Notes under the pieces: model-generated
Seen by the model: only the letters and a program-made list of their open reading frames with translations
Databases searched by the model: none
Told to the model about the DNA's origin: nothing
Shown: in pieces, positions 3,528 through 38,830 of the stretch
How the letters are laid out: each line of letters opens with the position of its first letter
Position numbering within the stretch: position 1 is the first letter of the stretch
Origin: an uncultured Bdellovibrionales bacterium
Lineage (GTDB): Bacteria; Bdellovibrionota_C; UBA2361; SZUA-149; JADYYL01
Assembly (NCBI GenBank): GCA_964401925.1
Contig: CAYOAK010000003.1
Coordinates: 1-41,777, forward strand
Length of the DNA stretch: 41,777 bases
Reading direction: 5' to 3'
Translations under genes and position numbers: made by a program

Positions 3528-4714
3528 TGATGAATCGCTTTCTAGACCGGCTTATTGTCTTGCTCTTCTTTGCGGTGCTGATCCTGCCCGGAATTCAGCA
3601 GCACTATTCACCGTTCACCATTCCCGCTCTCGATGAGAATCGAAACCGTCTGACAATGCCCGATGGCGAGATCCCGGACGGAACGCTTCTAGAGCGGATC
3701 TACCGGAGGGGGCAGAGCTACTCATCTGCATACGAGAAGTATTTCAACGATCATTATGGATTCCGTGATTTCCTCATCCGCGCAAAGAATCAGCTCGATT
3801 TCACCTTGTTCGGGCATTCGGACACGATCCTGATCGGCAAGGACAACTACCTGTTCTTCCGCGAGCAGCTCGAAAGAGATCTGGTAACAGCGGACAATGT
3901 CCCGCAAGCAACGATTGACCAAGTGTACAACGGCATTCTCAAGCTTGCCGAATGGTGCCGCGATCGAAAAAAACTTTTTGTCGTCTTACTCTGCCGCGAA
4001 AAGGAATCAATCTATGCAGACAAACTTTCGAATCCGACCGTGAGGCGGCCCGCGCTGCCGGCTTCCGAGGTTTACGCATCCCGCTTCGCGCGCGAGCCCT
4101 CGCTCCTCTTTTTGGACAGTCGAGACACCCTGCTTTCCACACGAAAGAAGCTGCCGGTCTTTTACCGGACCGACTTTCATTGGACGACTGTCGGCGCCTT
4201 CGAGGTCGGCCGCGATCTCGTAGACAAGATTGCGAGCGGTCTGGGCTCGGAAATCCGCTGGCGGCACCGGCTTCAGACCGAACCGCTACGGGGCTATAGC
4301 GGGACCCAAAATCTCTATCTCGCAATTTTCTCTCCCGAGGCGGAGACCATCCCAGAGGTAAAGCATTCCTGGGAGGAGAGTTCTTTCGCCCCGGTCCCGC
4401 TGCCTCATCCGTTTGAGGAGGTTCGGCGCGCCAAAACGCCGGGCCGGAACTCCTCTCCGCTCCTTCCGCCGACGGTGATAATCGGCAACTCGTTCACACC
4501 GTATTTTTTCAAAACGCCGCTCCCTGAATATTTCGAAAGCATATCGTACGCGTTCAAGGGGTGGCTGCATTATATGCCGCTTGAGAGACTGATCTCTCCG
4601 GAGACGAAAGTTGTCGTGCTCCAGGTGAACGAATTTGACCTCGGGACATACTACGCAAACCCCGAGATCTGGGCGAAGATCGCGCTGGAGCAATCGGCTC
4701 CGCGAAATAACTGA
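3527..4714 (+). CDS. AlgJ/AlgX-N-like SGNH-type O-acetyltransferase partner protein
   Basis: Start overlaps the MBOAT stop (TGATG at 3525-3529), suggesting translational coupling. It has an N-terminal anchor helix, a D-x-H-W motif (RTDFHWT) and IGNSFT, which resemble the Asp/His/Ser residues of AlgJ/AlgX. Confidence 0.7.
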   Translation: MMNRFLDRLIVLLFFAVLILPGIQQHYSPFTIPALDENRNRLTMPDGEIPDGTLLERIYRRGQSYSSAYEKYFNDHYGFRDFLIRAKNQLDFTLFGHSDTILIGKDNYLFFREQLERDLVTADNVPQATIDQVYNGILKLAEWCRDRKKLFVVLLCREKESIYADKLSNPTVRRPALPASEVYASRFAREPSLLFLDSRDTLLSTRKKLPVFYRTDFHWTTVGAFEVGRDLVDKIASGLGSEIRWRHRLQTEPLRGYSGTQNLYLAIFSPEAETIPEVKHSWEESSFAPVPLPHPFEEVRRAKTPGRNSSPLLPPTVIIGNSFTPYFFKTPLPEYFESISYAFKGWLHYMPLERLISPETKVVVLQVNEFDLGTYYANPEIWAKIALEQSAPRNN

Positions 4715-22989: not shown

Positions 22990-24273
22990 TTAGAACAGGC
23001 CCGTTGGATCTACGAGCGTCACGAAAAGTTGCCCGCTTGCGCCGGCGAGGGAGGTAGTTGCAGCTCCGGTCGCAAGAACATCACCGCCGAGACCACCATT
23101 CCCGCCAAATCCGCCGCCGCCGCCGCCGCCGATGCGAGTCGCTGCGCTAACAGTGCCCGGTCCACCCGCGCCTGCAGCGGCCCCCGGCAAAACCGAAATG
23201 GTTCCCCCGTTACTCGGTGTTACCGTTGGGCTGAGCAGATGCACGATCCCTCCAGCTCCACCGCCGCCGGACCCGGAATTTGCACCTGCAACTCCGCCGT
23301 CTCCCCCCGCAACACTGATCGATCCCCCCTGAGTGATACTTCCGGGAGAAGCCAAAATAACTATCCCGCCGGCGCCGCCGCCAGCTCCGCTCGGTGCGAC
23401 CGAGCCACCCGCAGAAATTGCACCTGCCGCGCCGATCGAGATTCCCGATTGCGCCAAGATTGTAACCGCGCCGCCGCCGCCACCGCCGACCGAACCCGGA
23501 GCGCCGCCTGCTCCGGCTCCTCCACCGAATGGACCGGGCTTTAAGAGGGTCCGCGCTTGGTTTGGCGTAAGGCCGACTCCACCAGTTCCTCCAAAACGGG
23601 TCGCGGCATTCGATCCGAGCTCGCCATGCTCAGCATGTCCCGCGGAGTTTCCCGTTGCTGCCGGCCTCAGTGCGGGGATCATGCCCGCAGAGAAGGTTGA
23701 TGCCGCTGTTTCCAGGAGTCCGCCAGTCGCGGACGACGGAACGGACACTATCCCGTCGATTGTAACGGTACCAGTCGCGCGAAGGATGACGCCGCTCGGG
23801 ATCGTCAACACCTGCCCTGCGGCGACGGTGATATCGGTGAACTGCAAATTCCCATCCGTCGCATAATCAGTGAGGAGTGCTCCTCCCACCGTGACGTTCA
23901 GCGGACCTGCGGATCCGTCGCCGTAAATGCGGAGCGAACCATCAGCTCCAGCGGCGCCAGCCGCACCCGGCGGCCCGGCTGGTCCGGCCGCACCCGCAGC
24001 ACCAGCCGTCCCGTTAGTGCCGGCTAGACCGGTTGCGCCAGTGGGACCCTGTGCTCCTGCGGCTCCTTGAGGCCCCGCCGGTCCGACGAGAAGGGCGCGT
24101 CTGCCCAGTTTCGTCTCACCTCGCACGCATTTTGCCCGCAGCGTCAGTGCACCGTTGGAATTCTTCGAGCAGATGACTTTCGGAATGGGCGCGGCCAACG
24201 CCGCTTGACCGGTAAGCAATACCAAAGAAAATATCGCTGCCGGGATCATTCGAAGAATGTGTAGATCGATCAT
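22990..24273 (-). CDS. secreted collagen-like triple-helix repeat protein with glycine-rich beta-helix-like C-terminal region
   Basis: ATG at 24273 gives the signal peptide MIDLHILRMIPAAIFSLVLLTGQAALA. It has 16 uninterrupted G-X-Y triplets, followed by long Gly-rich repeats (..GGIVILASPGSITQGGSISVAGGDGG..). Confidence 0.8.
   Translation of the reverse strand: MIDLHILRMIPAAIFSLVLLTGQAALAAPIPKVICSKNSNGALTLRAKCVRGETKLGRRALLVGPAGPQGAAGAQGPTGATGLAGTNGTAGAAGAAGPAGPPGAAGAAGADGSLRIYGDGSAGPLNVTVGGALLTDYATDGNLQFTDITVAAGQVLTIPSGVILRATGTVTIDGIVSVPSSATGGLLETAASTFSAGMIPALRPAATGNSAGHAEHGELGSNAATRFGGTGGVGLTPNQARTLLKPGPFGGGAGAGGAPGSVGGGGGGAVTILAQSGISIGAAGAISAGGSVAPSGAGGGAGGIVILASPGSITQGGSISVAGGDGGVAGANSGSGGGGAGGIVHLLSPTVTPSNGGTISVLPGAAAGAGGPGTVSAATRIGGGGGGGFGGNGGLGGDVLATGAATTSLAGASGQLFVTLVDPTGLF
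23938..24084 (-). repeat. collagen-like G-X-Y repeat tract (coding)
   Basis: GPAGPQGAAGAQGPTGATGLAGTNGTAGAAGAAGPAGPPGAAGAAGADG = 16 consecutive Gly-X-Y triplets. Confidence 0.85.
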
Positions 24274-24467
24274 CTTTGTGCCCTTTCGCTCAAAAAAATT
24301 CACGACGATCTCTATAGCGGTAGCCCCGCCCACCCGCCATTCGAAAACTCGCCGCCTCTCGTCGATGGGAGGCCGGAGAGCAGCCGGGGGACATCCCGAA
24401 CCAGGGGAAACCGAAAACCTGCCGTTCTCCTCCAAAAACCCTCAGCAAATTCAGCAATGTACAGCTC

Positions 24468-24493
24468 TATAGATTGCCAGAAAATGCCGATAA
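24468..24493 (+). promoter_or_regulatory. sigma-28 (FliA)-type promoter candidate
   Basis: TATAGATT-N10-GCCGATAA, compared with the enterobacterial consensus TAAAGTTT-N11-GCCGATAA. The -10 element matches 8/8 and the -35 element 6/8. It ends 31 nt upstream of the flagellin ATG at 24525. Confidence 0.55.
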
Positions 24494-24524
24494 CCAATTG
24501 CTGTGTGCAGCACCATGGATGGTG

Positions 24525-26378
24525 ATGTTGAATTTGAACACAAATCGGTCTGCTCTCGGAGCGCTGCGCCAATTGGATGGGCATACCAATGCCTTGCGCG
24601 CGAGCTTTGAGCGGCTCTCGACGGGACTTCGGATCACTCGCGCAAGCGATGACGCCGCAGGTCTATCGATCGGCACAGCTTTGCGTGCGGACTCTCGGGT
24701 GTTCAATCAAGGGATTCGGAACGTCAACGACGGGATAGCACTTCTATCGATCGCAGAAGGCGCAACACAGGAACTCTCCAAGGTCGTCACACGAATCGAA
24801 GAGCTTGCGTTTCAAGCGGCAAACGGGACGCTCACTTTTACGCAACGCCGAGCGCTCGACGCGGAAGCACAAGCACTTCGTGCTGAGCATGATCGAATCA
24901 AGGCAACGACAAATTTCAACGGCCTTGCCTTAATTGACGGCTCGCTGTCGCAGCTCAGTCTTCAAGCGGGATACGGCGTGAACGGCACGCTCACTCTCGC
25001 CGTTGGACAGAATACTCTTCACGGTGAGGGGGATGGGACGTTCACGAACAACACGGCCGTGACGTTACCGGGGGCCGGATCACACGAAGATATCGAGCTC
25101 GTCGACGTGAATGGAGATTCGATCCTTGATCTTGTTTACAACGATCGCGGGGCGAACACGATTTACACGCATGTCGGGAACGGAGACGGCACCTTTCTCG
25201 CTCGGCAAGGCGTGGCAGTTGGATCGAGCCCGTGGGAGATGGAGTTCGGAGACTTCAATGAGGATGGGCTCGTTGATTTCGTTACCTCCACAGCAGCGGG
25301 AGTGAATTGGCGGTTCGGAACCGCCGGAGGAACCTTTGTGTCCGGGGCGGGTCTTGCCGGTCCGTCACAACGCTCGGTAACGGTAGGTGATTTCAACAAC
25401 GACGGAAACCTCGATTTCCTCTCCTCAGAGTTTTCAAATACGGATTCGTTTCTGCATCTCGGAAACGGAGATGGGACTTTCAAAGCGGTGCAGACCATCG
25501 CCGTGCCGGTACTCGCGGAATCTGCAGCGGCCGGGGATCTGAACGGAGACGGAATCGACGACGCCGTTTTCGGAGGAGGAGATCTCGTCGTCGCACTTTC
25601 CAACGGAAACGGCACATTTAAGGCAGGTGTCTCTTACAGTGTCTCCGGCATCATACGGAACGTAAAAATGGCGGACATGAACGGCGATGATATTCTGGAT
25701 GCCGTCGCTTCCACCGACGGGGGCCGGGTCGACGTCTTCTTGGGAAACGGAAACGGCACGTTCAAAGCCTCTGCCGTTCTGAGCGGGCAAGGAGGTGGCG
25801 GTTATGCTGGTTTAGCTCTTGCTGACGTTAACAGCGACGGAGCATTGGACGTCATTTCGACTGCGACGACTACCCCCGTGTACCAAGTATTCGTGAATAA
25901 TGGGAACGGTTCGTTCCTAGCTCGAGTGACCTATGGTGCTGCAGCAAACACGAGAGCTGTCGCAGCTGGAGATATCAACGGTGACGGCATCAACGACCTC
26001 GTCAGCGCAGCGTACGCCGGAAGCTCGCTAGCGATTCTCTTCGGGAACGGCGGCACGACCGGCGACATGCAGGACTTCGACCTGCGCACACGGAGCCAAG
26101 CGCTCGCAGCGATCGATCTGCTGAAAACTGCGCGGAATGCCATTAGCGCGGAGCTTGGCGCGATCGGAGCATTCCGGAGCAGGCTCGACACAGCGGCAAA
26201 TGCGCTCAGTATTATTCGGGAGAACAGCGAGCGCGCCGCCAGCCAAATTCTAGATGTGGACGTGGCGCAAGAAGCGGCGGTGCTTGCCGCGGTGAACATC
26301 CGGCAGCAAGCCGCCGCCGGAGTTCTCTCGCAAACACAGCTCCAACCGCAGCTGGCGTTAAGCCTGCTGCGATTCTAA
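24525..26378 (+). CDS. fliC: flagellin with FG-GAP beta-propeller in place of the variable domain
   Basis: N-terminus MLNLNTNRSAL..FERLSTGLRITRASDDAAGLSIG..IRNVNDGIALLSIAEGA..AFQAANGT..FNGLALIDG. C-terminus ..LGAIGAFRSRLD..ILDVDVAQEAAVLAAVNIRQQAAAGVLSQTQLQPQLALSLLRF. Both match the flagellin N and C domains. ATG 24519 or 24525 is the likely start; the ORF is open from 24474 but that stretch contains the promoter. Confidence 0.85.
   Translation: MLNLNTNRSALGALRQLDGHTNALRASFERLSTGLRITRASDDAAGLSIGTALRADSRVFNQGIRNVNDGIALLSIAEGATQELSKVVTRIEELAFQAANGTLTFTQRRALDAEAQALRAEHDRIKATTNFNGLALIDGSLSQLSLQAGYGVNGTLTLAVGQNTLHGEGDGTFTNNTAVTLPGAGSHEDIELVDVNGDSILDLVYNDRGANTIYTHVGNGDGTFLARQGVAVGSSPWEMEFGDFNEDGLVDFVTSTAAGVNWRFGTAGGTFVSGAGLAGPSQRSVTVGDFNNDGNLDFLSSEFSNTDSFLHLGNGDGTFKAVQTIAVPVLAESAAAGDLNGDGIDDAVFGGGDLVVALSNGNGTFKAGVSYSVSGIIRNVKMADMNGDDILDAVASTDGGRVDVFLGNGNGTFKASAVLSGQGGGGYAGLALADVNSDGALDVISTATTTPVYQVFVNNGNGSFLARVTYGAAANTRAVAAGDINGDGINDLVSAAYAGSSLAILFGNGGTTGDMQDFDLRTRSQALAAIDLLKTARNAISAELGAIGAFRSRLDTAANALSIIRENSERAASQILDVDVAQEAAVLAAVNIRQQAAAGVLSQTQLQPQLALSLLRF
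25020..26060 (+). repeat. seven FG-GAP/VCBS-type repeats (protein-level) inserted between the flagellin N and C domains
   Basis: Seven D-x-N-x-D-G-x-x-D loops: DVNGDSILD, DFNEDGLVD, DFNNDGNLD, DLNGDGIDD, DMNGDDILD, DVNSDGALD, DINGDGIND. Each is followed by G-N-G-(D/N)-G-(T/S)-F or a degenerate form of it, and one extra GEGDGTF strand precedes the first repeat. Confidence 0.8.
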
Positions 26379-28865: not shown

Positions 28866-31817
28866 CTACTGCAGGAACGCTTCTCCGCGTTTGACTCGAA
28901 CGGCGCTCGAGACCTCGGGCGGTGAAACGGTTGTGCCGTCGATCTTCCCTATCCAGATTTTTCTGTCTGTTGTGAGAACCGCAAACCAGGTTTGCCCATT
29001 GGCGTAGGCGCCCGCAACAGCTTGCTGAGCCCGAGGAACCGCAAGCGAGTTGGAAGAATTTCTCCATGCCGATTGCGAACGGTCATAAACAAGCAGCTTG
29101 ATCGCCTTCGTGCTTCGACTAAAGAAGGCGAGATTCACCGGCGCGCTGCCTGAAGCTGGAAGCGCGAGGTAGCTCCCTGAGGAGATGCTCCGCGGCAGAC
29201 TCGCTGTCTCAAGCACTTTTGCCCCATCCCGACTGAGAAGCTGAGCTTTGCGGTTCAACAGCACCAGGAACAAAGTATCGCCATTCGCGGTCATCACGCA
29301 GCTCGCTGACGTGACGCCTTTAGGAAGGCTGACTGTCGTCCCGGAGGACGTCCCCGGTGTGAGCAACTGAATAGATCGCCGAGTACTGTTCATCGCCGCG
29401 GGGACAAACTGCCCTCCAATCGCGCAACCAAGCAGCGGCGTATCGCGGCCGGTCCCAAACGCACCCAGAGAGACTTTATGCCCTGTAAGCGGATCGAGCG
29501 CTCCCCAACTCAACTTGTCTGTGCTTCGTGCTCCGCGTTTCACAGAGATGACCTTCGCGCGTCCAGTCCCGTCGATCTCACCAACGCCAACCTTCATCAC
29601 CCTGGAGATGCTTCCTTCGTGGGTTGGACCGCTACCGACCTCTTGTGGCTCCGAAAGGAATGCCCGGAAGGCGGTGTTATTCAGGAGGACAAGATCGCTC
29701 GAACCATCCCCATTGAGATCGCGTAGAACATGCGGAGCGGCATCGCAGAGATCTCCTACGCCATCGCCGTCAGCGTCCGCCTGATCAGCGTTCGACACAG
29801 CGGGGCAGTTGTCGCTCGTATCGGGGGCACCATCTCCGTCAACGTCGGATGGCACCACGACAGCGGGCATAAACACAGCAGTAAATGTCGTGTTGGTAAG
29901 CGGTGTGTCGATGGTGTGAACAAGCTGCCCACTGTCGGACCAGAGTGCGAAATTATAGGTAATCCCGTTTAGTGTCTGCGGCGCGAGTGTGCCGATTGCA
30001 CGCGTTGTCCCGACAACTCCTTCGACCGATTTCGGCGCGGTCTGTGGCTGGCCGTCCAGTGTAACCGTAAGACCAGCCGGTGAAGTCTGTAGAGTGAAAG
30101 TGGACTTCCGCGGCAACACATCCCGAGTCGACTGATGGATTGCCCCTTGTGAGTCAGTCACTGTGAGCTGAATTCGATACCAGACGTTCGCCGAGGTCTC
30201 TCCGAGCTTCGGAATTTGGAACGAGCCGGTTCTGGTCTGTGTCAGCGGGCCGAGGAACGGATGCGAATGAGTGTCGTGATGGAATGCGACGCTCCACGAG
30301 AAAGCACTCGCAGGAAGAGTCCCATCCTGCGAGTCCGTGGCAGTGCCGGAGAAACTGATTGTATCGCCTGCACTGTAAAGGGCTCCGTTTCCAGGACTAA
30401 CGATTGTTCCTACCGGCGCAGTATTCTGTCCCGTGACCGTAATTTGCCTCGATGCTGAATTCGTACCGCCACGCCCGTCTGACACTGTCAGGGTCGAAGT
30501 AAATACGCCCGGCGTGGAGTAGGTGTGACTCGTCGTAACACCGGATGCCGTCGGCGACCCATCGCCAAAGTTCCACGAATAGGTGAGCGTGTCTCCGTCA
30601 CTATCGCTGCTTTGTCCCCCGCTGAAATTTACATTCAGAGGCACTGTGCCCGAAGTCGCCGAAGGTGAGTTCACAGCAACCGGTGCCTGATTTGGGGCCG
30701 TGCCCGTGTAAGTGATTCTGCGAACTGCGCCGCCGCTGAACGCTAAGTAATACAGCGTTCCGTCAGGCCCAGTTTCCAGAGAAACGGGGGAATCTACCCC
30801 CGTAGCGAACGCCGACATCTGATTCGATTGATTCAATCCGCGAATAAAATTCCCGATGTAATCCGAAAAGAAGTAGACGCCGGTATACGATGCGGGGAAC
30901 TGCGATCCTCGATAGAAGACCCCTCCCGTGATCGCGAAGCCTTCCGGATGGGCGTAGGCGTAGATCGGATTCGTCATTCCAGTTGCAGAGCAGACACCTT
31001 CGCAAGTCGGCCAGCCGTAGTTCGCGCCCCTCGCAAGCTGATTCACTTCCTCCCAAGTATTCTGCCCGACATCGTTGACGTAAATCCTTGAGCTCCCCGG
31101 ATCGACAGCAAAGGTATACGGATTCCGCAGCCCAAGCGCCCAGATCTCACCGCGCGCTCCGGACGTTCCGACGAAGGGATTGTCAGACGGAATCGTTCCG
31201 TTCGAGTTAATCCGCAGGATCTTTCCCAGGAGGTTCGTGAGTGTTTGTGCATTCGCCGATACGGCATTGTCGCCGACTGCAATATAGAGCTTTCCGTCTT
31301 GCCCAAAGTGGATCGCTCCGCCGTTGTGATTACCCGCACTGACAAAGATGTCGTCGAGGATCACCGTTTCGCTTCCTGCCTCCACGAGATCGGGATTTGA
31401 GACGCTTGCACGAAAGCTGCTCACCCGATTCTTCAGCGGGGAATTGTTCGTATAGTAAAGATAGAGAGTCCGATTGGTCGCGAAATTCGGATCGAAGGCG
31501 ATGCCGAGCAACCCGCGCTCGGATGAAGTATTCACAGGAAGGTTGACAAATGGTGTCGCGAGGAGCTGGCCATTTTTAATGATTCGCAGGCGGCCCGCCT
31601 TCTCGGCAACGAACAGTCTGCCGTCCGGAGAGAAGCGCATCGTCGTCGGCTGTTGCAAGCCCGAGGCAACTACGGATTCCTGGAAATCAGGGGGAAGCGC
31701 CGCTGCAACGGTGTGGAGAATGGTGAGGATGAGGAAAGCAAGAATGCTTCCGGATAGAACGTAGAGAGCTGTCTTCAGTTGCGGGGCGATGACCCGAACA
31801 ATGCGATCATCTCGCAT
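28866..31817 (-). CDS. membrane-anchored PQQ-dependent sugar (glucose/sorbosone) dehydrogenase-like beta-propeller with PKD, thrombospondin-type-3-like and C-terminal beta-rich domains
   Basis: N-terminal TM helix. GSDH motifs (RGLLGIAFDPNF, HNGGAIHFGQDGKLYIAVGD, EIWALGLRNPYTF, ANYGWP). PKD domain (YSWNFGDGS...HTY..PG.F...LTVSD). Calcium-binding D-x-D-x-DG repeats (DVDGDGAPDTSDNCP..DADGDGVGDLCD), then an FG-GAP-like LNGDGSSDLVLL. Confidence 0.85.
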   Translation of the reverse strand: MRDDRIVRVIAPQLKTALYVLSGSILAFLILTILHTVAAALPPDFQESVVASGLQQPTTMRFSPDGRLFVAEKAGRLRIIKNGQLLATPFVNLPVNTSSERGLLGIAFDPNFATNRTLYLYYTNNSPLKNRVSSFRASVSNPDLVEAGSETVILDDIFVSAGNHNGGAIHFGQDGKLYIAVGDNAVSANAQTLTNLLGKILRINSNGTIPSDNPFVGTSGARGEIWALGLRNPYTFAVDPGSSRIYVNDVGQNTWEEVNQLARGANYGWPTCEGVCSATGMTNPIYAYAHPEGFAITGGVFYRGSQFPASYTGVYFFSDYIGNFIRGLNQSNQMSAFATGVDSPVSLETGPDGTLYYLAFSGGAVRRITYTGTAPNQAPVAVNSPSATSGTVPLNVNFSGGQSSDSDGDTLTYSWNFGDGSPTASGVTTSHTYSTPGVFTSTLTVSDGRGGTNSASRQITVTGQNTAPVGTIVSPGNGALYSAGDTISFSGTATDSQDGTLPASAFSWSVAFHHDTHSHPFLGPLTQTRTGSFQIPKLGETSANVWYRIQLTVTDSQGAIHQSTRDVLPRKSTFTLQTSPAGLTVTLDGQPQTAPKSVEGVVGTTRAIGTLAPQTLNGITYNFALWSDSGQLVHTIDTPLTNTTFTAVFMPAVVVPSDVDGDGAPDTSDNCPAVSNADQADADGDGVGDLCDAAPHVLRDLNGDGSSDLVLLNNTAFRAFLSEPQEVGSGPTHEGSISRVMKVGVGEIDGTGRAKVISVKRGARSTDKLSWGALDPLTGHKVSLGAFGTGRDTPLLGCAIGGQFVPAAMNSTRRSIQLLTPGTSSGTTVSLPKGVTSASCVMTANGDTLFLVLLNRKAQLLSRDGAKVLETASLPRSISSGSYLALPASGSAPVNLAFFSRSTKAIKLLVYDRSQSAWRNSSNSLAVPRAQQAVAGAYANGQTWFAVLTTDRKIWIGKIDGTTVSPPEVSSAVRVKRGEAFLQ

Positions 31818-31976: not shown

Positions 31977-32813
31977 CTATTCCGGTGCACTCAGCTCAGC
32001 ATTTGTTTGCCTTGTTCCGCCGACATAAGTGCACGAAGCTTCGAGCATTGTGGGATAGAACTGTAGCGAACGGAGGATGCGCGCGATCCAGGACGAGGTC
32101 ATCCGGTAGCCGTAATATGTCACCGAGCATTTATTGACACCTGGAGCTATCGGCGCGACGACGTGGTCCGGCACATAGATCGGATTGTCATACTTCCAAA
32201 GCTTCCATACGTCGTGCGAGAGCCGCGGCCGGACGCGGAAATATGCAGCGTCCGCCTCTGCACACATTCCGGCCGCCCTGCAGCCGCGCACTGAGTGGAT
32301 GTTCTCTTCGTGATCGATCTCTTCGGAGTTGTTCAAGTAGAAGGTCTCCGTCCGCATCGAAGTCGCCATGAGTATCCCGTCACTCACCGGCTCAATCGTC
32401 ACAAATCGAATTGCGTCTCCAAGTCCGGTCGGGCTCATCCCTGCAAGAACGAGAAAAGTGAAGCCCATGACGAATCCCGCTCTCCGGCGTGAGAGGACTC
32501 GTTCACCGGTTTTTCGATCGGTGCGAAAGGCGAAGCGCTGCCAGAATCTTCGATACTGGCGGAGTACCCACCGAATAGGCGGGCCAATGACATTCCAGAT
32601 CGGCTGAAGGAAGTGGAGATAGAATCCCAGCGTTCCCTCTTTAACGTTAACGACTGTACGTCGTACGTAACGAACATCGTCCGCTAATCCTTGCAGCGTT
32701 CCCGGTTCGGTAACCGGAGGGGGCTTTGGTTTTCCGGAGCGAGCGTGAAGCATCTTCGCCTCCGCCAGCAGCCGATCGGCCTGTTCGCTCGAGCTCTCTT
32801 CTTCATCGCTCAT
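31977..32813 (-). CDS. hypothetical membrane protein (last gene of the ClpB-like operon; possibly DUF1523-related)
   Basis: Starts 10 nt after the ClpB-like stop. One clear TM helix (FVMGFTFLVLAGMS) and a Cys-containing extracytoplasmic domain with ..VTYYGYR.. that weakly recalls DUF1523. The family call is low confidence. Confidence 0.65.
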   Translation of the reverse strand: MSDEEESSSEQADRLLAEAKMLHARSGKPKPPPVTEPGTLQGLADDVRYVRRTVVNVKEGTLGFYLHFLQPIWNVIGPPIRWVLRQYRRFWQRFAFRTDRKTGERVLSRRRAGFVMGFTFLVLAGMSPTGLGDAIRFVTIEPVSDGILMATSMRTETFYLNNSEEIDHEENIHSVRGCRAAGMCAEADAAYFRVRPRLSHDVWKLWKYDNPIYVPDHVVAPIAPGVNKCSVTYYGYRMTSSWIARILRSLQFYPTMLEASCTYVGGTRQTNAELSAPE

Positions 32814-32823
32814 GCGAGTCCCT

Positions 32824-35052
32824 TCACAAGGCGGCCGCGAGCTTCGCCGGAGCCGGTGCGAAGCCGATTCGATCGTGTGCCGGATCGTAAGTCACAAATA
32901 TCTCCCCCGTGACATTCCCCTCGCCCAGCACGAGGTCGGCCAACCCTGAGGTAATCTGCCGGTCGATAAAACCGAGAATGCTCCGTGCGCCTTCCCGGGG
33001 AACGTACTTCGCATCAATCATCGCTGCGAGGTCCTGATCCGCGATCGTCAATTGAATATTTCGATCGGCAACGAGCTTGTTGATCCGCGCCAGATCTTTT
33101 CGCGCGATGACTTGAAGCACAGGGATCTGCAACCGCTGGAAGCAGTAGATATTCCCGCCGAACCGTCCAAGGAACTCCGGCTTGTATTGGGTGCGCAGCT
33201 CGGTAAGCGCAAGCTCTTTCGACTCCTCGAATGGAATCGCCGGATCGAGGAAATGCGGAGTCCCGATATTCGTCGTCATGATGATGACGGAATCTTTGAA
33301 AGAGGCGGTGAGCCCGCGGCTGTCCGTCAGCCGGGCGTCATCAAGAACCTGCAGCATGAGATTGAAGACGTCGACATGTGCCTTCTCGATCTCGTCGAAG
33401 AGTACAACGCTGTAGGGATTCCTGCGGGCCGCGTTTGTCAGAATCCCGCCGTGCTCATACCCTTCGTATCCGGGAGGTGCTCCGATGAGCTTCGCCACGG
33501 CGTGCTTCTCCATGTATTCCGACATATCGAAGCGCAGCAGCGGAACCTGCAGAGCTTCGGCAAGGCCTTTTGCCAGCTCCGTCTTTCCGACACCGGACGG
33601 TCCGAGGAACATGAAAGTGCCCGACGGCTTATTCGGCATTTTCAGCCCGAGCCTTGCCCGCTTCACCGCTTTTGCGACCTCAGTTGTCGGCTCTGTCTGC
33701 CCAATCACCCGCGCACTCAGCACTGATTCAAGATTCTTCAGTCTTATCCGCTCATCCTCCGTAAGCGTATCCACCGGGATGCCGGAGAGAGAGCTGAACG
33801 ACTTGAGCACCGCTGAGTCGTCAATAGAGAGACCTGCATAGATCTCTGCGACCTTTTTCTTATACTGGTCAGTTGATTGGTTGATCAGCTCGCTCAGCTT
33901 CTGAATTCTCGTCTTGATCGCCCCGATCTCGGGCGTCTCGAAGTTTGCATTTCCCAGAATTGCAGTAAGCGACCCCTGCTTGCCGGCGCTTGGCGTCATG
34001 CCGCCCGCCTGGGATGATCGCTCCACATGCTGTGCACGCTGCGCCTGCTCCCCTTTCAATAGCTCGATCGAATCCTCGAGCTTTCGGATCTCCTCTTCGC
34101 CGTCAGTAATATCTTTGTAGAGGAGGCGCACGGCAGTCTGCCGCGCTTCCCAGCTTCCTCTTTCGGCGTCGATTTTCTTGAGAAGCTCGCTGTGCTTCAC
34201 GGAAAGGTCCTGTCGAGAAGGCTCAGCCCGCAGCGCCGCCTCAACGGCCTTCGACTCGATCTTCAGCGCTTCAATATGCTGAGGCGCAATATGCGCCTGG
34301 CGGCAATAATCGGTCAGCGCCCGATCGAGGAGAGTGATAGCGGCATCCGGCTGCGCGCGAAGCTCGGCGAGTTTGTATTTTTCGGTTAGGACCGCAGCCG
34401 TCTCCACAGCCGCAGGTTTGATCTTGATTCCGTGATGCCGTTCGAGCGGTTGCACTGCCTCTTCCAGGATAATCCGCAGATTCTCCGGATTTGGCTCCTT
34501 CACCTCGTAGAGCGTGCAACATTCGAGGATATCCCCGTCGCACTTGAGAATCTCGCCAAGATTGTCATCTTTCGTTTCGAAGATCGCCTGACACTTGCCG
34601 GCTTTAAGATCGCCCATCAGGCCGTTGATCAAATTGGTGCAGCCGTGCGCCTGCGCTGCGCGAATGAAATCGATCGTATCCTCGATGACGAGCACTGAGT
34701 TCCGTGACCTGAGCAGCGTCTGGCGGACCCGCTCGAAAAGCGAGTTGATCACGGGGGCGTTTCCCGACTCGAAAAGCTTGTCCGAGTTCAGCCAATAGAA
34801 GCGCTTGCCGACAATGTCGACCGGGGTGCGGTGGTCTCTCTTCAGGCTTTGTATCCCAAGGACAATCGCACTAATTCCGACGCCACCCCGGCCCGTGATG
34901 ATCAGATTGTTCTTCCGCATCTTCATCAGTACGGAAGAGAGCTCTTCGAGCTCCTGATCCCGGCCGACGAGACGAAAGTCCGGAATGCCGCTTAGGACAT
35001 CGCTACCGCGGGAGAGAATGTTGCTGATCGAGACAACATTTGACGGCTGCAT
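32824..35052 (-). CDS. ClpB/Hsp104-class double AAA+ ATPase lacking the Clp N-domain, with degenerate NBD1
   Basis: NBD2 is intact: Walker A GPSGVGKT, Walker B VVLFDEIEKAH, sensor-1 IIMTTN, PEFLGRF, sensor-2 REGAR. NBD1 Walker A reads GRGGVGIS (no Lys) and Walker B reads VLVIEDT. A coiled-coil middle region of ~160 aa lies between LRAQPDAAITLLDRA and the IPV..L..E motif. Confidence 0.9.
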   Translation of the reverse strand: MQPSNVVSISNILSRGSDVLSGIPDFRLVGRDQELEELSSVLMKMRKNNLIITGRGGVGISAIVLGIQSLKRDHRTPVDIVGKRFYWLNSDKLFESGNAPVINSLFERVRQTLLRSRNSVLVIEDTIDFIRAAQAHGCTNLINGLMGDLKAGKCQAIFETKDDNLGEILKCDGDILECCTLYEVKEPNPENLRIILEEAVQPLERHHGIKIKPAAVETAAVLTEKYKLAELRAQPDAAITLLDRALTDYCRQAHIAPQHIEALKIESKAVEAALRAEPSRQDLSVKHSELLKKIDAERGSWEARQTAVRLLYKDITDGEEEIRKLEDSIELLKGEQAQRAQHVERSSQAGGMTPSAGKQGSLTAILGNANFETPEIGAIKTRIQKLSELINQSTDQYKKKVAEIYAGLSIDDSAVLKSFSSLSGIPVDTLTEDERIRLKNLESVLSARVIGQTEPTTEVAKAVKRARLGLKMPNKPSGTFMFLGPSGVGKTELAKGLAEALQVPLLRFDMSEYMEKHAVAKLIGAPPGYEGYEHGGILTNAARRNPYSVVLFDEIEKAHVDVFNLMLQVLDDARLTDSRGLTASFKDSVIIMTTNIGTPHFLDPAIPFEESKELALTELRTQYKPEFLGRFGGNIYCFQRLQIPVLQVIARKDLARINKLVADRNIQLTIADQDLAAMIDAKYVPREGARSILGFIDRQITSGLADLVLGEGNVTGEIFVTYDPAHDRIGFAPAPAKLAAAL

Positions 35053-35079
35053 AGAGAACCTACTGAGCGGCGTGAAGCA

Positions 35080-36777
35080 TTACCGGCTGCTGCGGAGCTT
35101 ATCGAACGGATTCTGCGGACCGGCCGGAGCGGCAGCTTTCGGCTCGGCACGGGGCTCGTCTGCTCCGATACCGGAGTCGGCTCTGTCAGAGACGAGATCT
35201 TTGATCGCCTCCTGAACATGCCCCGAGACCATCCGAATCGCCTGAACTGTATCTCGCATGCGGCCGTAACCTTCACTTGCGATCTCGCTGGAGGCTTTCA
35301 GGACGTCCCCATAGTCCTGAAGCTCGCCGACGAGGCGGGCGATCTGATTCGCTTCGACCTCAACGTTCGTCGCATTCCGCACGACCTCTTGCGAGATGAT
35401 CGTCTGATTCTGCTCCGCCATCTTCGCGAAGTTATTCGCGGCGATCGATCGGGACTCGCTCGTCGCTGCGGCTGAGATCGCACTCATCACGGACATAAGT
35501 TGCTCACCCATCTGAGAGACGCCTTCGAGGTGCAGCCGCTTCGTGCTCGAGCTCTCGTTCCGGAGGGTGTCTTTGTAGGCTTGAATCTGTACCGCATGCT
35601 TGGTCAGACCGCCGATCGAGTTGGCAATATCGACCGACCCATCGTTGGTAAGCGTGATGTGCTCATTCAGCTCATTCAGTTTTTCCTCACGTGTCATGCG
35701 CGAGATAGGACTCTCATCTGAGGGGGTGCTCGTCAGCTCGCGCTTTACGCCGTCGTTCGCTTTCGCAACGTTTTTCAGCGACTCATCCATGATCAGATGC
35801 ATGTTCCTGAGCATGCCGTTTGCATCGCTCATCACCTCGGCGTGCTTGCCCAGGCGCCCAAGGGTTTGGAGAACGCTTTTCAGGCGGCTGTCGGAGGTAT
35901 CTACATACTTCACGGCGGAATCGATCAAGGCTCGCTGACGGTCGCGATTCGCATCTTTGGTGAGGTCGAGAAACTCTCGGAGCACCTCTTTTTGACGCTT
36001 CAGCTCCGGATTGCTGGAGTGCGGGCCTTGGGCGAGCTCCAGGCGTTTTTTCTCGATCTGGCGCACAATATCGCCGATCGCATCGGAGAGCAGCGGCCGA
36101 TCCACGAATTCAATCTCGTGTCCCCGTTCCTTCGCAGCCTTGCTCACTGGTCCGAGTCCGAAGAGTGTCTTCTCCTCTGCCAGCCTCGCCTTTTCACGGG
36201 CGAGATTTTCGAGCTTGAGCTTTGAATTCTTCAGATCGTTTTCGAGCTTCGCGAGCCCTTTCGTCTGTGCCTCTTGCCAGGCTTTGTCATTCTCGATCTC
36301 GCGGTAGACGTCAGTGATCTTATCCTGTTTTCGGATCTCAAAGACGGCCGTCAGCACTTCGAGCAACGGCTTGACCCGGTCCTGAAACTCGATCGATGAC
36401 TTTGTCATCTCGTCAATCACGGACTGCAGCTCGGCGAATGCTTCTGTGTCCTGCAATTGGATTCCTTCACGGTTGAGCAATTTGCGTTGCTCTTGCAGGT
36501 ATTCCTTGAACTCGTTGAACGCTTCGAGCTTCGCGCGGTTCTCCTCCTTGGTACTCTCTTTGGAAAACTGGAGAATTTTGGCGAGCTCATCCCGCTTCTG
36601 TTCCGGCGAGAGTGTTGGGTTCAGCATGATTTGTGCGTAGACATTTGTCTGCGCAAGGGAAGAGAAGTCGACCTGTTCGGTTGTCCCCTGTTTGGCTTTG
36701 TTCGCCCGCTGCTCTGAGATCTGTTGTGCGTCTGCGACAACACTCTTGACCGATCTTTTGACCGCTGACTCTGACAT
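35080..36777 (-). CDS. hypothetical 565-aa coiled-coil protein (first gene of the ClpB-like operon)
   Basis: GGAAG is 6 nt upstream of the ATG. The composition is almost entirely helical and charged with heptad-like stretches, and there is no signal peptide or TM helix. It ends 27 nt before the ClpB-like start. Confidence 0.75.
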   Translation of the reverse strand: MSESAVKRSVKSVVADAQQISEQRANKAKQGTTEQVDFSSLAQTNVYAQIMLNPTLSPEQKRDELAKILQFSKESTKEENRAKLEAFNEFKEYLQEQRKLLNREGIQLQDTEAFAELQSVIDEMTKSSIEFQDRVKPLLEVLTAVFEIRKQDKITDVYREIENDKAWQEAQTKGLAKLENDLKNSKLKLENLAREKARLAEEKTLFGLGPVSKAAKERGHEIEFVDRPLLSDAIGDIVRQIEKKRLELAQGPHSSNPELKRQKEVLREFLDLTKDANRDRQRALIDSAVKYVDTSDSRLKSVLQTLGRLGKHAEVMSDANGMLRNMHLIMDESLKNVAKANDGVKRELTSTPSDESPISRMTREEKLNELNEHITLTNDGSVDIANSIGGLTKHAVQIQAYKDTLRNESSSTKRLHLEGVSQMGEQLMSVMSAISAAATSESRSIAANNFAKMAEQNQTIISQEVVRNATNVEVEANQIARLVGELQDYGDVLKASSEIASEGYGRMRDTVQAIRMVSGHVQEAIKDLVSDRADSGIGADEPRAEPKAAAPAGPQNPFDKLRSSR

Positions 36778-36976: not shown

Positions 36977-37714
36977 CTATTCGTCTCCGTGCACATCGCC
37001 CCAATCCATCGGATCCATGCGTTGCATAGCTCCGTCAGGAGTGACCTGGTTGTAGACCCCCATCGAGGGACTGTTCCAAGTATTGTCGTTGTTCTGATAG
37101 ACGCCCGGCGAATTCGCGTAAGGCAGCTCAGCAACTTCGCCCGTTTCAGAGTTTCGATAGTACTGATTGCCTTGAATCGCACCCTGTACATACAGGCCGT
37201 GGTTAACGTCGCCGCGCTGCTGATTATTCATCCACGCTTGGTTTCCGCTATCGATAGCCTGTTGCCCCGCTCTCCAAGCTTCGTTCTGACCGTCGATTCG
37301 CTGCTGACTCGCTTTGTAGCGCTCCTGTCCCCGGCGGAACATCTCCTCCTGCGCTCTGAATCCGGCGCTGGGACCGGGGTTCGCGTTCATTCGTGCAGCG
37401 GCCTGCTCCTTCACCCAATTGTCGACAAACTCTGGGAAGGAGATCTGATGACCGCTGCGCTGAACATACTGTTGGTGCGCTGCAACAAGCTGGGGCGAAG
37501 GGTTGCGGATGAGCTCCTGCAGCTGCGCTTGGGCCTGCATCTGGGTCTGCCTCATTATCTGCTGCATCTGCATGTCCGATTGCTGCATCTGCTGGTTCAG
37601 CATGTCCATCTGCTGCTGGTAATCCTGAGCGCGGACCTGAGCTGGGGCGAGCACTAAAGCAACGAGGAGCGCTCCGAAGGCACTAACGTATACGTGACGA
37701 AAACAACGGATCAT
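36977..37714 (-). CDS. secreted Gln/Met/Asn-rich protein
   Basis: Signal peptide (VSAFGALLVALVLAPAQVRA), then QQQMDMLNQQMQQSDMQMQQIMRQTQMQAQAQLQ and further Q/N-rich repeats (GQNEAWRAGQQAIDSGNQAWMNNQQ). Confidence 0.7.
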   Translation of the reverse strand: MIRCFRHVYVSAFGALLVALVLAPAQVRAQDYQQQMDMLNQQMQQSDMQMQQIMRQTQMQAQAQLQELIRNPSPQLVAAHQQYVQRSGHQISFPEFVDNWVKEQAAARMNANPGPSAGFRAQEEMFRRGQERYKASQQRIDGQNEAWRAGQQAIDSGNQAWMNNQQRGDVNHGLYVQGAIQGNQYYRNSETGEVAELPYANSPGVYQNNDNTWNSPSMGVYNQVTPDGAMQRMDPMDWGDVHGDE

Positions 37715-37825: not shown

Positions 37826-38830
37826 TTAGCGAGTTCCCGAACCAGATTGGTGGTGCGAAGGCACGGCTGGCCGGTGCTTCAGATACTCCTCGGTATGGGG
37901 CCCGAGCTTTCCTCGCCAGTCAATCGACCCGCCAAGTGGCATGCCCATTACTTGCGCGAAAGGGTATCCGTCGAGCAGCATTGCATAGGCAAACGGAACA
38001 ACGTCCTTACGCAGATGGGAGAGCGGATCTCGAAGCGTCATGCCCGGATGCCCACGATCAGCAGTACCGGCCCCCTGCTGCGGATCTGTGATAAATCTGC
38101 CGGCCGAGTCGTACATCGCCTGATGACCAACCCGCTCACCGTTTTCCAGCACTACCGGTTTGCTTCTCGCTTCGAACGCCGAACCGACATGGTAATAATC
38201 CGCAGCCATCGCTCCGGAGACTGCGGGCGCTTCCCACTGCGACGGTTCACATCCTGCCTTCTGGTTGAAGCGGGGTTTTCCGCCAACGACCTCAACGCTG
38301 TCGCATGGCTTGGGCAAACGTAGCGTCCAGGCAGTGCCTCTCTGTTGCTCGGCCGCTGCCCAAGCATTGAACGCTTCGCGCGTCTCAGGCGACACAAAAG
38401 TCAGAAACATCTCCTTCGGCTTTTCACTTCGATCCGCCGGTGTAATCCGCAGCTTATAGCTGACGAAGTTCCCCTCGCCTCGCGGTGGATTGATTGTCAG
38501 CTCTCCCTTCTCGGGATCGATGATCCCGGCACGCACACGCAGGCTCTCGAAGTTTTCGTGAGGACGTTTTGGCGTTTGAAAGTCGAACGCGCCGCCAAAT
38601 TTCTGTTCGACAAAGCGCTGAACGAGCGCGTCGACGGTGGGGAACGCGCGGGGGAGCAGATGCGGCTCTGTCGGAGAGTCGGGCAGGACCTCAATTTTGT
38701 CGGAGGCCTTGGCACCGAGAGCAGCGCGCAAATTAATAGTCTGAGGAACCTGATGATCCAGCACGATGGCACGCGCCCCATCCGGCGTGTGCATCTTCGG
38801 ATGTAAAAGCGTCGCTGCGCCGGTGGCCAT
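37826..38830 (-). CDS. hypothetical protein (no signal peptide)
   Basis: 334-aa ORF with coding-like composition. The overlapping plus-strand ORFs are Arg/Ser-rich shadows. No motif recognised. Confidence 0.65.
   Translation of the reverse strand: MATGAATLLHPKMHTPDGARAIVLDHQVPQTINLRAALGAKASDKIEVLPDSPTEPHLLPRAFPTVDALVQRFVEQKFGGAFDFQTPKRPHENFESLRVRAGIIDPEKGELTINPPRGEGNFVSYKLRITPADRSEKPKEMFLTFVSPETREAFNAWAAAEQQRGTAWTLRLPKPCDSVEVVGGKPRFNQKAGCEPSQWEAPAVSGAMAADYYHVGSAFEARSKPVVLENGERVGHQAMYDSAGRFITDPQQGAGTADRGHPGMTLRDPLSHLRKDVVPFAYAMLLDGYPFAQVMGMPLGGSIDWRGKLGPHTEEYLKHRPAVPSHHQSGSGTR

Follow-up and report, generated by a model that had tools for sequence, protein, structure and literature searches.

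A helical protein, a ClpB-like ATPase and a bitopic membrane protein encoded as one unit in bacteria and huge phages

Introduction

The window analysed here, a stretch of 41,777 nucleotides from an uncultured Bdellovibrionales bacterium (positions 1 to 41,777 of contig CAYOAK010000003.1, assembly GCA_964401925.1), contains three adjacent genes that raise the question of what a double-AAA+ ATPase of the ClpB type does between two neighbours that match no annotated family. The first gene encodes a helical protein of 565 amino acids (CC), the second the ATPase (742 amino acids) and the third a predicted bitopic inner-membrane protein (TM; 278 amino acids). We find that these genes form a genuine unit, closely linked and hitherto undescribed, the products of which probably form one membrane-associated protein-remodelling machine.

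Results

Conservation of the three-gene unit

The three open reading frames (ORFs) all lie on the minus strand, separated by gaps of 27 and then 10 nucleotides, and their lengths and spacing are confirmed as given in the initial annotation of the window, which had been made from the sequence. Each ORF opens at the earliest start codon possible 3′ of the preceding stop; because the ATPase ORF cannot extend further upstream, the missing Clp N-domain is not an artefact of start-site choice. The G+C content of the segments filled by the trio (0.555–0.574) is similar to that of the remaining window.

The same gene order recurs in approximately 45 independent loci, with identities down to approximately 25%, in surveys that were seeded separately with the helical protein and with the ATPase. 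When seeded with the helical protein, the ATPase gene is directly next in every locus examined, and a gene of the membrane-protein family follows in almost all loci, after zero to three small ORFs. The metagenome scan seeded with the ATPase yielded 29 loci of its family (the dead-D1 family, described below), together with one canonical ClpB. Of these 29, the 26 with upstream sequence all have the helical gene immediately before the ATPase, and a gene of the membrane-protein family lies downstream in 20 of the 22 that extend past the ATPase. Intergenic gaps are typically 3–130 nucleotides. Both surveys return the same trio, as expected from the earlier proposal that the ATPase is genetically dedicated to its neighbours, and since the genes flanking the trio vary between loci, the unit is the trio itself, with the helical protein and the ATPase as its invariant core. 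Our working definition of the module is a helical gene, then a gene for a ClpB-like protein with a dead first ring and no N-domain, then one for a bitopic, Cys-containing membrane protein, and this is the arrangement present in the window.

The ATPase

The 742-residue protein matches the Pfam families AAA_2 (E-value 4.8e-54), AAA_lid_9 (4.1e-10) and ClpB_D2-small (4.2e-9), with no Clp_N match and no AAA match across the first AAA+ ring (D1). Its closest relative in the PDB is ClpB of T. thermophilus (1qvr; 3.7e-99), and the alignment begins at ClpB residue 172. The Pfam matches, this alignment and the motifs of D1 and of the second ring (D2) (Table 1) agree with the earlier description of a ClpB-class ATPase that retains the middle (M) domain, lacks the N-domain and has only its second ring apparently active.

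A search with the D1 and M regions alone was used to define the family. It returned 63 proteins at E-values from 0 to 1.7e-46, after which the values jump to 4.8e-8, where canonical ClpB-like proteins start. Full-length members have approximately 670–750 residues, and Clp_N is present in none. The Walker A lysine of D1 is lost in 63 of 63 members (Ile, Met, Val, Gly, Cys, Ala or Leu being found instead), and across the same 63 the Walker B of D1 reads hhhhED or hhhhDD, not hhhhDE; the motifs of D2 are intact while D1 is dead. We propose from these motif patterns that D1 has served as a structural ring, dead to nucleotide, from the origin of the family onwards.

The possibility that this is an ordinary housekeeping clpB beside two unrelated hypothetical genes has in its favour that the best named matches are ClpB, and that databases and papers label the family ClpB or ClpA. 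Among the NCBIfam models, ClpB (TIGR03346) does rank top for the window ATPase, but with 391.1 bits against a cut-off of 1232.1; ClpV/TssH (TIGR03345) scores 334.2 bits (cut-off 884.95), ClpG and ClpK (NF033607 and NF033606) score 307.6 and 287 bits (cut-off 1900), and the protein is likewise far under the cut-off for ClpA. In a neighbour-joining tree of 684 columns that set the dead-D1 family against E. coli ClpB, ClpA and one canonical ClpB-like protein only, the family splits from all three in 100 of 100 bootstraps. Other family members are 35–71% identical to the window ATPase, as compared with approximately 30% for E. coli ClpB. With a dead D1 and no N-domain in all members and with neighbours conserved in approximately 45 loci, an ordinary housekeeping ClpB is excluded by score, motifs, tree and gene neighbourhood, and the sequence comparisons support the earlier view of a specialised, ClpB-derived paralogue.

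A ClpP-docking tripeptide, [LIV]G[FL], was sought by sequence inspection in D2 between TTNIG and PEFLGRF, in the region TTNIGTPHFLDPAIPFEESKELALTELRTQYKPEFLGRF (the canonical position, past the sensor-1 strand), and none is present there. The C-terminus of the window ATPase (32824–32880) ends in ...DRIGFAPAPAKLAAAL; other members share neither its IGF tripeptide nor its Ala-rich end. The length of the M-domain differs among family members, with that of the Agrobacterium phage Atu_ph07 being much shorter, and coupling of the ATPase to DnaK is doubtful for this reason. In one Rhizobiales metagenome-assembled genome (MAG; locus L004) the ATPase is split at the M-domain into the overlapping ORFs 1677–2600 and 2591–3826 (307 and 411 amino acids), which represents either a frameshift error or a decaying copy.

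The helical protein

The AlphaFold2 model of the 565-residue protein is all-helical, with a mean pLDDT (predicted local distance difference test score) of 75 and a pTM (predicted TM-score) of 0.54. Its N-terminal half has four helices of approximately 30–50 residues, and the C-terminal half is made up of longer ones, of 75, 111 and 58 residues. The protein has no cysteine and no hydrophobic segment (the maximum Kyte-Doolittle mean over 19 residues is 0.82), and Pfam, NCBIfam and PADLOC scans gave no match, in keeping with its first description as a helical orphan without a transmembrane segment. PHROGs gave a single marginal match of 14 residues (E 0.0057), ten diverse relatives gave no Pfam match at E ≤ 1, and no internal repeats were found among five segments compared by hhalign.

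The family itself is large. A word-indexed search found 78 homologues with 25–100% identity, nearly all of 545–587 residues, and in an exhaustive HMMER profile search 361 clusters at 50% identity passed E ≤ 1e-3 and 213 passed E ≤ 1e-30. These group into approximately 65 clades at approximately 38% identity, of which the window clade is one; the closest named relatives of the window protein are from Bdellovibrionota MAGs (64–65% identity).

Across clades the protein keeps three local features, namely a hairpin-tip loop, a disordered linker of variable length and sequence, and a C-terminal motif (Table 1). The loop between model helices 154–201 and 213–250, at the tip of a hairpin, contains F206, G207 and G209, which are nearly invariant in 44 sequences, and it may contact the membrane or a partner protein. 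At the other end of the protein, beyond the variable linker, P557 is nearly invariant and the [NS]PF motif is kept across clades; this motif is a candidate docking or engagement tag for the ATPase.

Foldseek comparison of the model with the PDB gave nothing at E ≤ 0.001. Partial matches were obtained to AhlC (E 0.09, probability 0.99, target TM-score 0.42) and the XaxAB pore (E 0.4), with query TM-scores of at most 0.22 for both, and to the LegC3 N-domain (E 0.14), chemoreceptor (MCP) models and the coiled coils of MukB and Rad50, again with low TM-scores; we treat all of these as generic long-helix matches. The analogies with PspA/Vipp1/ESCRT-III, SNARE proteins and TssBC drawn in the initial annotation gain no support as homologies: structures of PspA, Vipp1, ESCRT-III, SNAREs and the TssBC sheath are absent from the 50 listed Foldseek PDB matches (for SNARE-like bundles the LegC3 N-domain is all that appears), and Pfam gives no such match for the window protein (E ≤ 0.1) or ten diverse members (E ≤ 1).

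The TelA comparison proposed at the same time stands only as a weak structural lead. TelA proteins are elongated and helical, are associated with envelope stress and have an unknown mechanism. The top Foldseek match in BFVD is a phage 'Tellurite resistance protein' (E 8.8e-4, probability 1.0), and a 'TelA-like protein' ranks 23rd, with TM-scores of 0.19–0.27. In contrast, Pfam TelA (PF05816) matches neither the window protein (E ≤ 0.1) nor ten diverse members (E ≤ 1), TelA proteins are shorter (approximately 330–400 residues), and we know of no TelA protein that pairs with a ClpB-like ATPase. The only 326-residue ORF of Vibrio phage Kuja, presumed to be TelA-like, is not recognised as TelA by Pfam, and its comparison with the helical family (hhalign probability 0.3%) thus says nothing either way. 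In one Bdellovibrionota contig (L013, 12896–13621) a gene for a TerC-family membrane protein lies directly 3′ of the trio, which is notable only because the best viral fold match of the helical protein carries the label 'tellurite resistance protein'.

A search of PDB sequences with the alignment profile gave a sole match, to the N-terminal membrane helix of RnfG (9eri_G; E 7.5e-5, 57 residues). It covers residues 426–482 of the helical protein (35332–35502 in the window) and is probably compositional, both being Ala/Ser-rich helices.

The membrane protein

The AlphaFold2 model of the 278-residue protein has a pLDDT of 87. The protein has no match in Pfam, NCBIfam, PADLOC or PHROGs; 71 homologues were found, and scanning the longer of them for fused domains gave nothing usable. 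Distant orthologues in phage and bacterial loci align to it at E 4e-28 and 7e-31, and the most divergent (from Candidatus Thiodiazotropha) reaches an hhalign probability of 88%.

A single hydrophobic segment is present in every orthologue, and all four cysteines of the window protein (Cys178, Cys184, Cys229 and Cys261) lie C-terminal to it, which agrees with the earlier prediction of a membrane protein with a Cys-containing extracytoplasmic domain. C229 and C261 are invariant and C178 and C184 nearly so; most orthologues keep four cysteines, and that of Atu_ph07 has two. Because an Arg-rich stretch (RRR) precedes the membrane segment, in line with the positive-inside rule, and the conserved cysteines follow it, the sequence suggests an N-in, C-out topology with periplasmic disulfides. 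In the 59-residue helix on the predicted cytoplasmic side W91 is invariant and Y87 nearly invariant, and this helix may be the docking site for the helical protein or the ATPase.

The β-rich domain beyond the membrane gave weak Foldseek matches of an OB-fold-like kind (oligonucleotide/oligosaccharide-binding), to SubB (4bwg_C; probability 0.96, TM-score 0.49, root-mean-square deviation 6.1), SSB, PriB and Stn1, all with E ≥ 0.01. Genes with thiol-redox functions (thioredoxin, DsbA-like, ResA/AhpC-like) recur a few genes from the module in unrelated loci (Table 1); they might relate to the periplasmic cysteines of the membrane protein, or be there by chance.

Table 1. Coordinates of the three genes and of the features within them (positions in the window unless a locus is named)
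Feature	Position	Strand	Basis
Gene 1, helical protein (CC), 565 amino acids	35080..36777	-	ORF
CC hairpin-tip loop LFGLGP, residues 205-210; consensus [FL]FG[FL]G[GP]	36148..36165	-	alignment, model
CC flexible low-complexity linker, residues 528-552	35122..35196	-	pLDDT < 50; length and sequence variable in alignment
CC C-terminal motif NPFDKL, residues 556-561; consensus [NS]PF, 5-8 residues from the end	35095..35112	-	
Gene 2, ClpB-derived double-AAA+ protein, 742 amino acids	32824..35052	-	ORF
ATPase D1, proposed pseudo-ATPase ring, approximately residues 28-250	34303..34971	-	motif states
D1 Walker A GRGGVGIS (Lys replaced by Ile; ClpB GEPGVGKT)	34870-34893	-	sequence
D1 Walker B VLVIEDT (ClpB hhhhDE)	34675-34695	-	sequence
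D1 pore-loop region LFESGNAPV, without Tyr	34750-34776	-	sequence
ATPase middle coiled-coil (M) domain, approximately residues 255-415	33808..34290	-	aligns to 1qvr M-domain
ATPase D2, apparently active ring, with D2-small, approximately residues 430-725	32878..33765	-	Pfam, 1qvr alignment, motifs
D2 Walker A GPSGVGKT	33580-33603	-	sequence
D2 Walker B VVLFDEIEK	33382-33408	-	sequence
D2 pore loop GAPPGYEGY	33457-33483	-	sequence
Gene 3, predicted bitopic inner-membrane protein (TM), 278 amino acids	31977..32813	-	ORF
TM long helix, predicted cytoplasmic, residues 37-95, including conserved juxtamembrane YRRFWQRFAF	32529..32705	-	model pLDDT 96-98 over most
TM membrane-spanning segment, residues 113-131	32421..32477	-	hydropathy peak 1.49; orthologues 1.7-2.5
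TM β-rich domain, predicted extracytoplasmic, residues 154-263	32025..32354	-	model strands, conserved Cys
Thiol-redox genes near the module	L001 13510-13833; L010 15227-15550; L013 7062-7808; L022 3251-3805; L019 2417-2884		

Distribution in bacteria and phages

The initial annotation missed the wide distribution of the module, which is carried by several lineages of bacteria and is widespread among huge phages, the isolated Atu_ph07 being one of them. Bacterial carriers are the window and other Bdellovibrionota-type contigs (L008, L009, L013 and L027), and a high-G+C, Rhizobiales-type clade that has the trio (including the Rhizobiales MAG L004 and also a 1.79-Mb contig with housekeeping neighbours), with synteny around the trio conserved in L044, L046 and L038. 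The 90% cluster of the helical protein of this clade includes WP_165165836.1 (G5V57_01290) of the cultured Nordella sp. HKS 07, which has a 7.18-Mb chromosome. The module is also present in a Candidatus Thiodiazotropha MAG and in further bacterial contigs (L017 and L022).

Among phages, the isolated 490-kb Agrobacterium phage Atu_ph07 encodes the helical protein (AUZ95252) and the ATPase, named 'ClpB protein' gp492 (AUZ95251), with the membrane protein (AUZ95247) placed three small ORFs beyond the ATPase. IMG/VR contigs of 283–519 kb carry the module, and a helical protein of the window type was not found in IMG/VR. Phage-like contigs with the module are up to 656 kb long and carry genes for thymidine kinase, RNA ligase, NAMPT, GmrSD and phage lysozyme; in the phage loci the module is set among genes of nucleotide, tRNA and NAD metabolism, not among structural genes. 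No plasmid in PLSDB carries the module. An origin of the module in phages only was considered and rejected, given the several bacterial clades in which it is clearly chromosomal.

L022 and L017 fall beside the Bdellovibrionota clade in the ATPase tree, the phage versions form another group that includes Thiodiazotropha, and the α-proteobacterial clade is nearest to the phage locus L012 (55–58% identity). On this sequence evidence the module has clearly been exchanged between phages and hosts. Genes of the CCA-adding/poly(A) polymerase family and NUDIX genes adjoin the trio in the α-proteobacterial chromosome clade (L044, 292–2198) and are found again in the phage locus L005 (4696–5703 and 12659–13867); a larger block with the polymerase and NUDIX genes may have moved between host and phage. 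The PolyA_pol of the L005 phage has no match to the bacterial PolyA_pol at E 1e-10.

In the literature, the genome paper of Atu_ph07 (PMC6102473) describes gp492 as a ClpB chaperone with a possible part in host survival during infection, whilst Iyer et al. (PMC7824862) call the same protein 'ClpA' and group it with AAA+ chaperones for which they suggest a possible role in translocating unfolded proteins or in assembly; neither paper names either partner of gp492. Our literature search found the trio described nowhere, the only mentions being generic ones of gp492 as ClpB or ClpA, and no paper that connects ClpB either to huge phages or to the combination of jumbo phages and coiled coils. The products of the trio in Atu_ph07 (gp488, gp492 and gp493, the numbers of the partners being taken from their position relative to gp492) do not occur in the virion mass-spectrometry table (PMC6102473 supplement; more than 100 proteins, running to gp707), so the module is probably not packaged.

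Discussion

A possible mechanism

The trio co-occurs outside this genome, the ATPase falls outside housekeeping ClpB and the helical protein matches no characterised family; on each of these points the proposal made with the initial annotation could have failed, and on each it held. The reading that we favour, to which we give a rough probability of 40%, is that the trio encodes an unfoldase that is tethered to the membrane and dedicated to the helical protein encoded with it, which would be its client or a client-presenting partner. The motor would be a hexameric ClpB-type unfoldase in which the first ring is structural and D2, with its intact Walker A and B motifs and pore-loop tyrosine, pulls. 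Because the N-domain is missing, it presumably cannot choose its substrates as ClpB, ClpV and ClpA do. The presumed client, a soluble helical-bundle protein of 550–600 residues encoded immediately upstream of the ATPase, would offer a flexible tail of 25–40 residues ending in [N/S]PF as the likely engagement site for the motor, and would gather at the inner membrane via the cytoplasmic helix of the anchor and/or its own Gly/aromatic tip loop. The anchor would be the bitopic inner-membrane protein, with its long cytoplasmic helix directed towards the partners and a disulfide-stabilised β-barrel in the periplasm. In such a cycle the ATPase would remove, unfold or recycle the helical protein by D2-driven threading, and the periplasmic domain of the anchor may tie these steps to the condition of the envelope. 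The machine first suggested, one that would assemble and disassemble a scaffold at the membrane, is a reasonable inference. Since diderm bacteria and huge phages both use the module, its role is probably to maintain or remodel the cytoplasmic membrane or the envelope and not to build virions.

Several observations weigh against this reading. No family that forms polymers or remodels membranes is detectably similar to the helical protein; its model looks like a monomeric bundle, and it could be an adaptor or regulator, not a client. The third gene is not constant: in one low-G+C locus (L033, 4174–5211) it encodes a DUF3137 membrane protein with two transmembrane segments, in L017 a hydrophobic peptide of 70 residues that is not of the membrane-protein family, and in L022 a divergent look-alike that escapes the family model, so that the anchor may be exchangeable or dispensable for the core pair. 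A promoter and terminator scan, with the upstream regions of five Bdellovibrionota-clade loci aligned, gave no common regulatory motif.

A wider formulation, which we put forward only tentatively, is that the trio is a hitherto unrecognised membrane-remodelling or maintenance system of diderm bacteria, comparable in function to Psp or ESCRT-III/Vps4 though its parts are unrelated to theirs (a new family of helical bundles, an Hsp100 motor with a dead D1 and a periplasm-sensing anchor), which huge phages have widely adopted to manage the host inner membrane in long infections.

Alternative explanations

The generic suggestion of Iyer et al. for the Atu_ph07 protein (PMC7824862) would suit a different division of labour, in which the helical protein replaces the N-domain and delivers other proteins (of phage or host, or aggregates) to an ATPase that acts as a general unfoldase or translocase at the membrane. 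The ATPase indeed lacks any substrate-recognition domain, strict co-inheritance suits an obligate adaptor equally well as a client, and the surfaces of the helical protein are conserved along its whole length, not in the tail alone. No third-party candidate client is conserved beside the module, however, and the absence of the trio from the Atu_ph07 virion proteome speaks against a packaged product, though not against a role in assembly. Known Hsp100 adaptors such as MecA, ClpS and McsB are small, and an elongated bundle of 565 residues would be unusual among them; we consider an adaptor possible, if somewhat unlikely. Defence systems often combine an ATPase, a coiled-coil protein and a membrane protein, and this architecture, together with a patchy spread across distant bacteria and phages that implies horizontal transfer, would also fit a conflict system, serving in anti-phage defence, superinfection exclusion or abortive infection with a membrane effector and used by huge phages against competitors. 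One locus (L024) adjoins a Type ISP restriction enzyme and a resolvase, and the ATPase matches the PADLOC candidates PDC-M37B (1e-29) and DolB (1.1e-17), but only across the generic AAA_2 region of D2 (residues 430–603), and the helical and membrane proteins match nothing there. The bacterial neighbourhoods are housekeeping in character, not defence islands, inheritance of the module appears vertical in the Bdellovibrionota clade and in the Rhizobiales-type clade (synteny is kept in L044, L046 and L038), and no nuclease, protease, pore or other effector domain is recognisable in it, which makes this reading decidedly unlikely.

We regard control of lysis or egress as highly improbable. Here the membrane protein would be an envelope factor of the holin, antiholin or spanin type, its activation timed by the ATPase and the helical protein, as its type-II topology with a periplasmic Cys-containing domain would allow. 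A Phage_lysozyme2 gene does lie two genes upstream in the marine huge-phage clade, but the linkage is restricted to that clade and no endolysin is found near the chromosomal copies in free-living bacteria; one homologue of the membrane protein matches XhlA at an E of 0.025, a match that falls far short of the Pfam threshold. Finally, a translocon resembling PTEX (the Plasmodium translocon of exported proteins) would have the helical protein as an α-pore-former of the ClyA/AhlC/XaxA type, with the ClpB-like ring feeding unfolded proteins through it. HSP101 works with the pore protein EXP2 in PTEX, a precedent for a ClpB-type motor on a pore, and Plasmodium HSP101 is among the PDB relatives of the ATPase. 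The partial matches of the helical model to AhlC and the XaxAB pore point in the same direction, but long helical bundles often match as weakly as this, with E-values of 0.09 and 0.4 and such low query TM-scores. At a maximum hydropathy of 0.82 the helical protein has neither the insertable hydrophobic head nor the β-tongue of ClyA-family pore formers (AhlC, XaxA, Hbl, Nhe), and no HBL, ClyA or XaxA Pfam match was found in 11 diverse members, so that we consider a translocon very remote.

Comparison with known systems

Among the systems compared, Hsp100/ClpB is, as judged from sequence, the only relative by descent. Homology to ClpB/Hsp104 extends over D1, the M-domain, D2 and D2-small; the M-domain is kept, no ClpP-docking loop is present, and the D2 motor and pore loop are conserved. 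Unlike ClpB, the ATPase of the trio has no N-domain and, throughout its family, no Walker A lysine, Walker B glutamate or pore-loop tyrosine in D1, and it is always encoded with two dedicated partners, whereas ClpB stands alone.

By analogy, the working principle of the membrane-tethered unfoldase would be closest to those of ClpV/TssBC, Vps4/ESCRT-III, PspA-PspF-PspB/C and Pex1/6-Pex15/26. ClpV (TssH) resembles it in principle as a ClpB-derived ATPase devoted to one co-encoded structural client, not to aggregates. In type VI secretion (T6SS) ClpV recognises TssC through its N-domain, which the trio ATPase lacks; the helical protein is not sheath-like, and T6SS genes are absent both from the window and, in the related loci examined, from the genes with Pfam annotation. 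ESCRT-III engages Vps4 through MIM motifs, and the trio may be similar in having a helical protein at a membrane and an AAA+ protein that would bind a short C-terminal motif past a flexible linker. The small bitopic partner likewise may resemble PspB/C of the Psp system (PspA, PspF, PspB/C). The helical protein nonetheless resembles PspA, Vipp1 and ESCRT-III in neither sequence nor fold (in Pfam, the 50 listed Foldseek PDB matches and the PDB profile search) and is two to three times longer, and the ATPase, in contrast to Vps4 and PspF, is a type II Hsp100.

In peroxisome biogenesis the double-ring AAA+ proteins Pex1/Pex6 are held at the membrane by Pex15/Pex26, and here the analogy (and it is one of arrangement only) would include an inactive D1, a working D2, a single-pass anchor with a long cytosolic helical domain and a helical client. 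Pex1/Pex6 differ in belonging to the classic NSF/Cdc48-type AAA+ clade and in being eukaryotic and heterohexameric, with partners that are not homologous. NSF, for its part, has an active D1 and an inactive D2, the reverse of the Hsp100-type ATPase of the trio with its dead D1 and apparently active D2.

Genomic context of the window

The window is an ordinary bacterial chromosome segment, with genes for shikimate dehydrogenase, MBOAT/AlgX, a hybrid histidine kinase, a Ser/Thr kinase, flagellin and a periplasmic binding protein. The next gene downstream of the trio (28866–31817, minus strand) encodes a protein of 983 amino acids that combines glucose/sorbosone dehydrogenase (GSDH), PKD, thrombospondin type-3 and FG-GAP elements; upstream lie genes for a Gln/Met-rich protein of 245 amino acids with a signal peptide (36977–37714, minus strand) and a protein of 334 amino acids with no family match (37826–38830, minus strand). 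As parts of the system these neighbours (the Q-rich secreted protein, the 334-residue hypothetical protein, the GSDH-PKD protein and the binding protein) were rejected, being conserved in no related locus.

Two further genes stand out in the window. In a flagellin of 634 amino acids (24474–26378, plus strand) the N- and C-terminal flagellin helical domains enclose six repeats of the FG-GAP/VCBS type, which from their sequence look like a β-propeller replacing the usual variable domain. The G+C content peaks at 0.657, against approximately 0.57 elsewhere, at 22990–24435 (minus strand), coinciding with an ORF of 481 amino acids whose N-terminus resembles a signal anchor and which has a collagen-like GxxGxx run (GPAGPQGAAGAQGPTGATG...), long stretches rich in Gly and Ala, and no Pfam match.

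Significance

Few protein machines have been studied as thoroughly as the Hsp100/ClpB motors. The ATPases described here constitute a large, coherent and overlooked branch of the Hsp100 proteins in which the first ring is dead throughout, and the two partner families, of which that of the helical protein comprises at least 361 clusters at 50% identity, lack annotation. The labels 'ClpB' and 'ClpA' in databases and papers hide the system, and annotation needs correcting. The module is open to experiment, as Atu_ph07 was isolated on the tractable host Agrobacterium tumefaciens C58, and the helical gene is recorded in the complete genome of the cultured Nordella sp. HKS 07, the clade of which has the full trio. 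Common to several Gram-negative lineages and many of the largest phages, the module points to an envelope function outside the Psp, Tol-Pal and ESCRT-like systems, and it may help to explain how huge phages handle their hosts.

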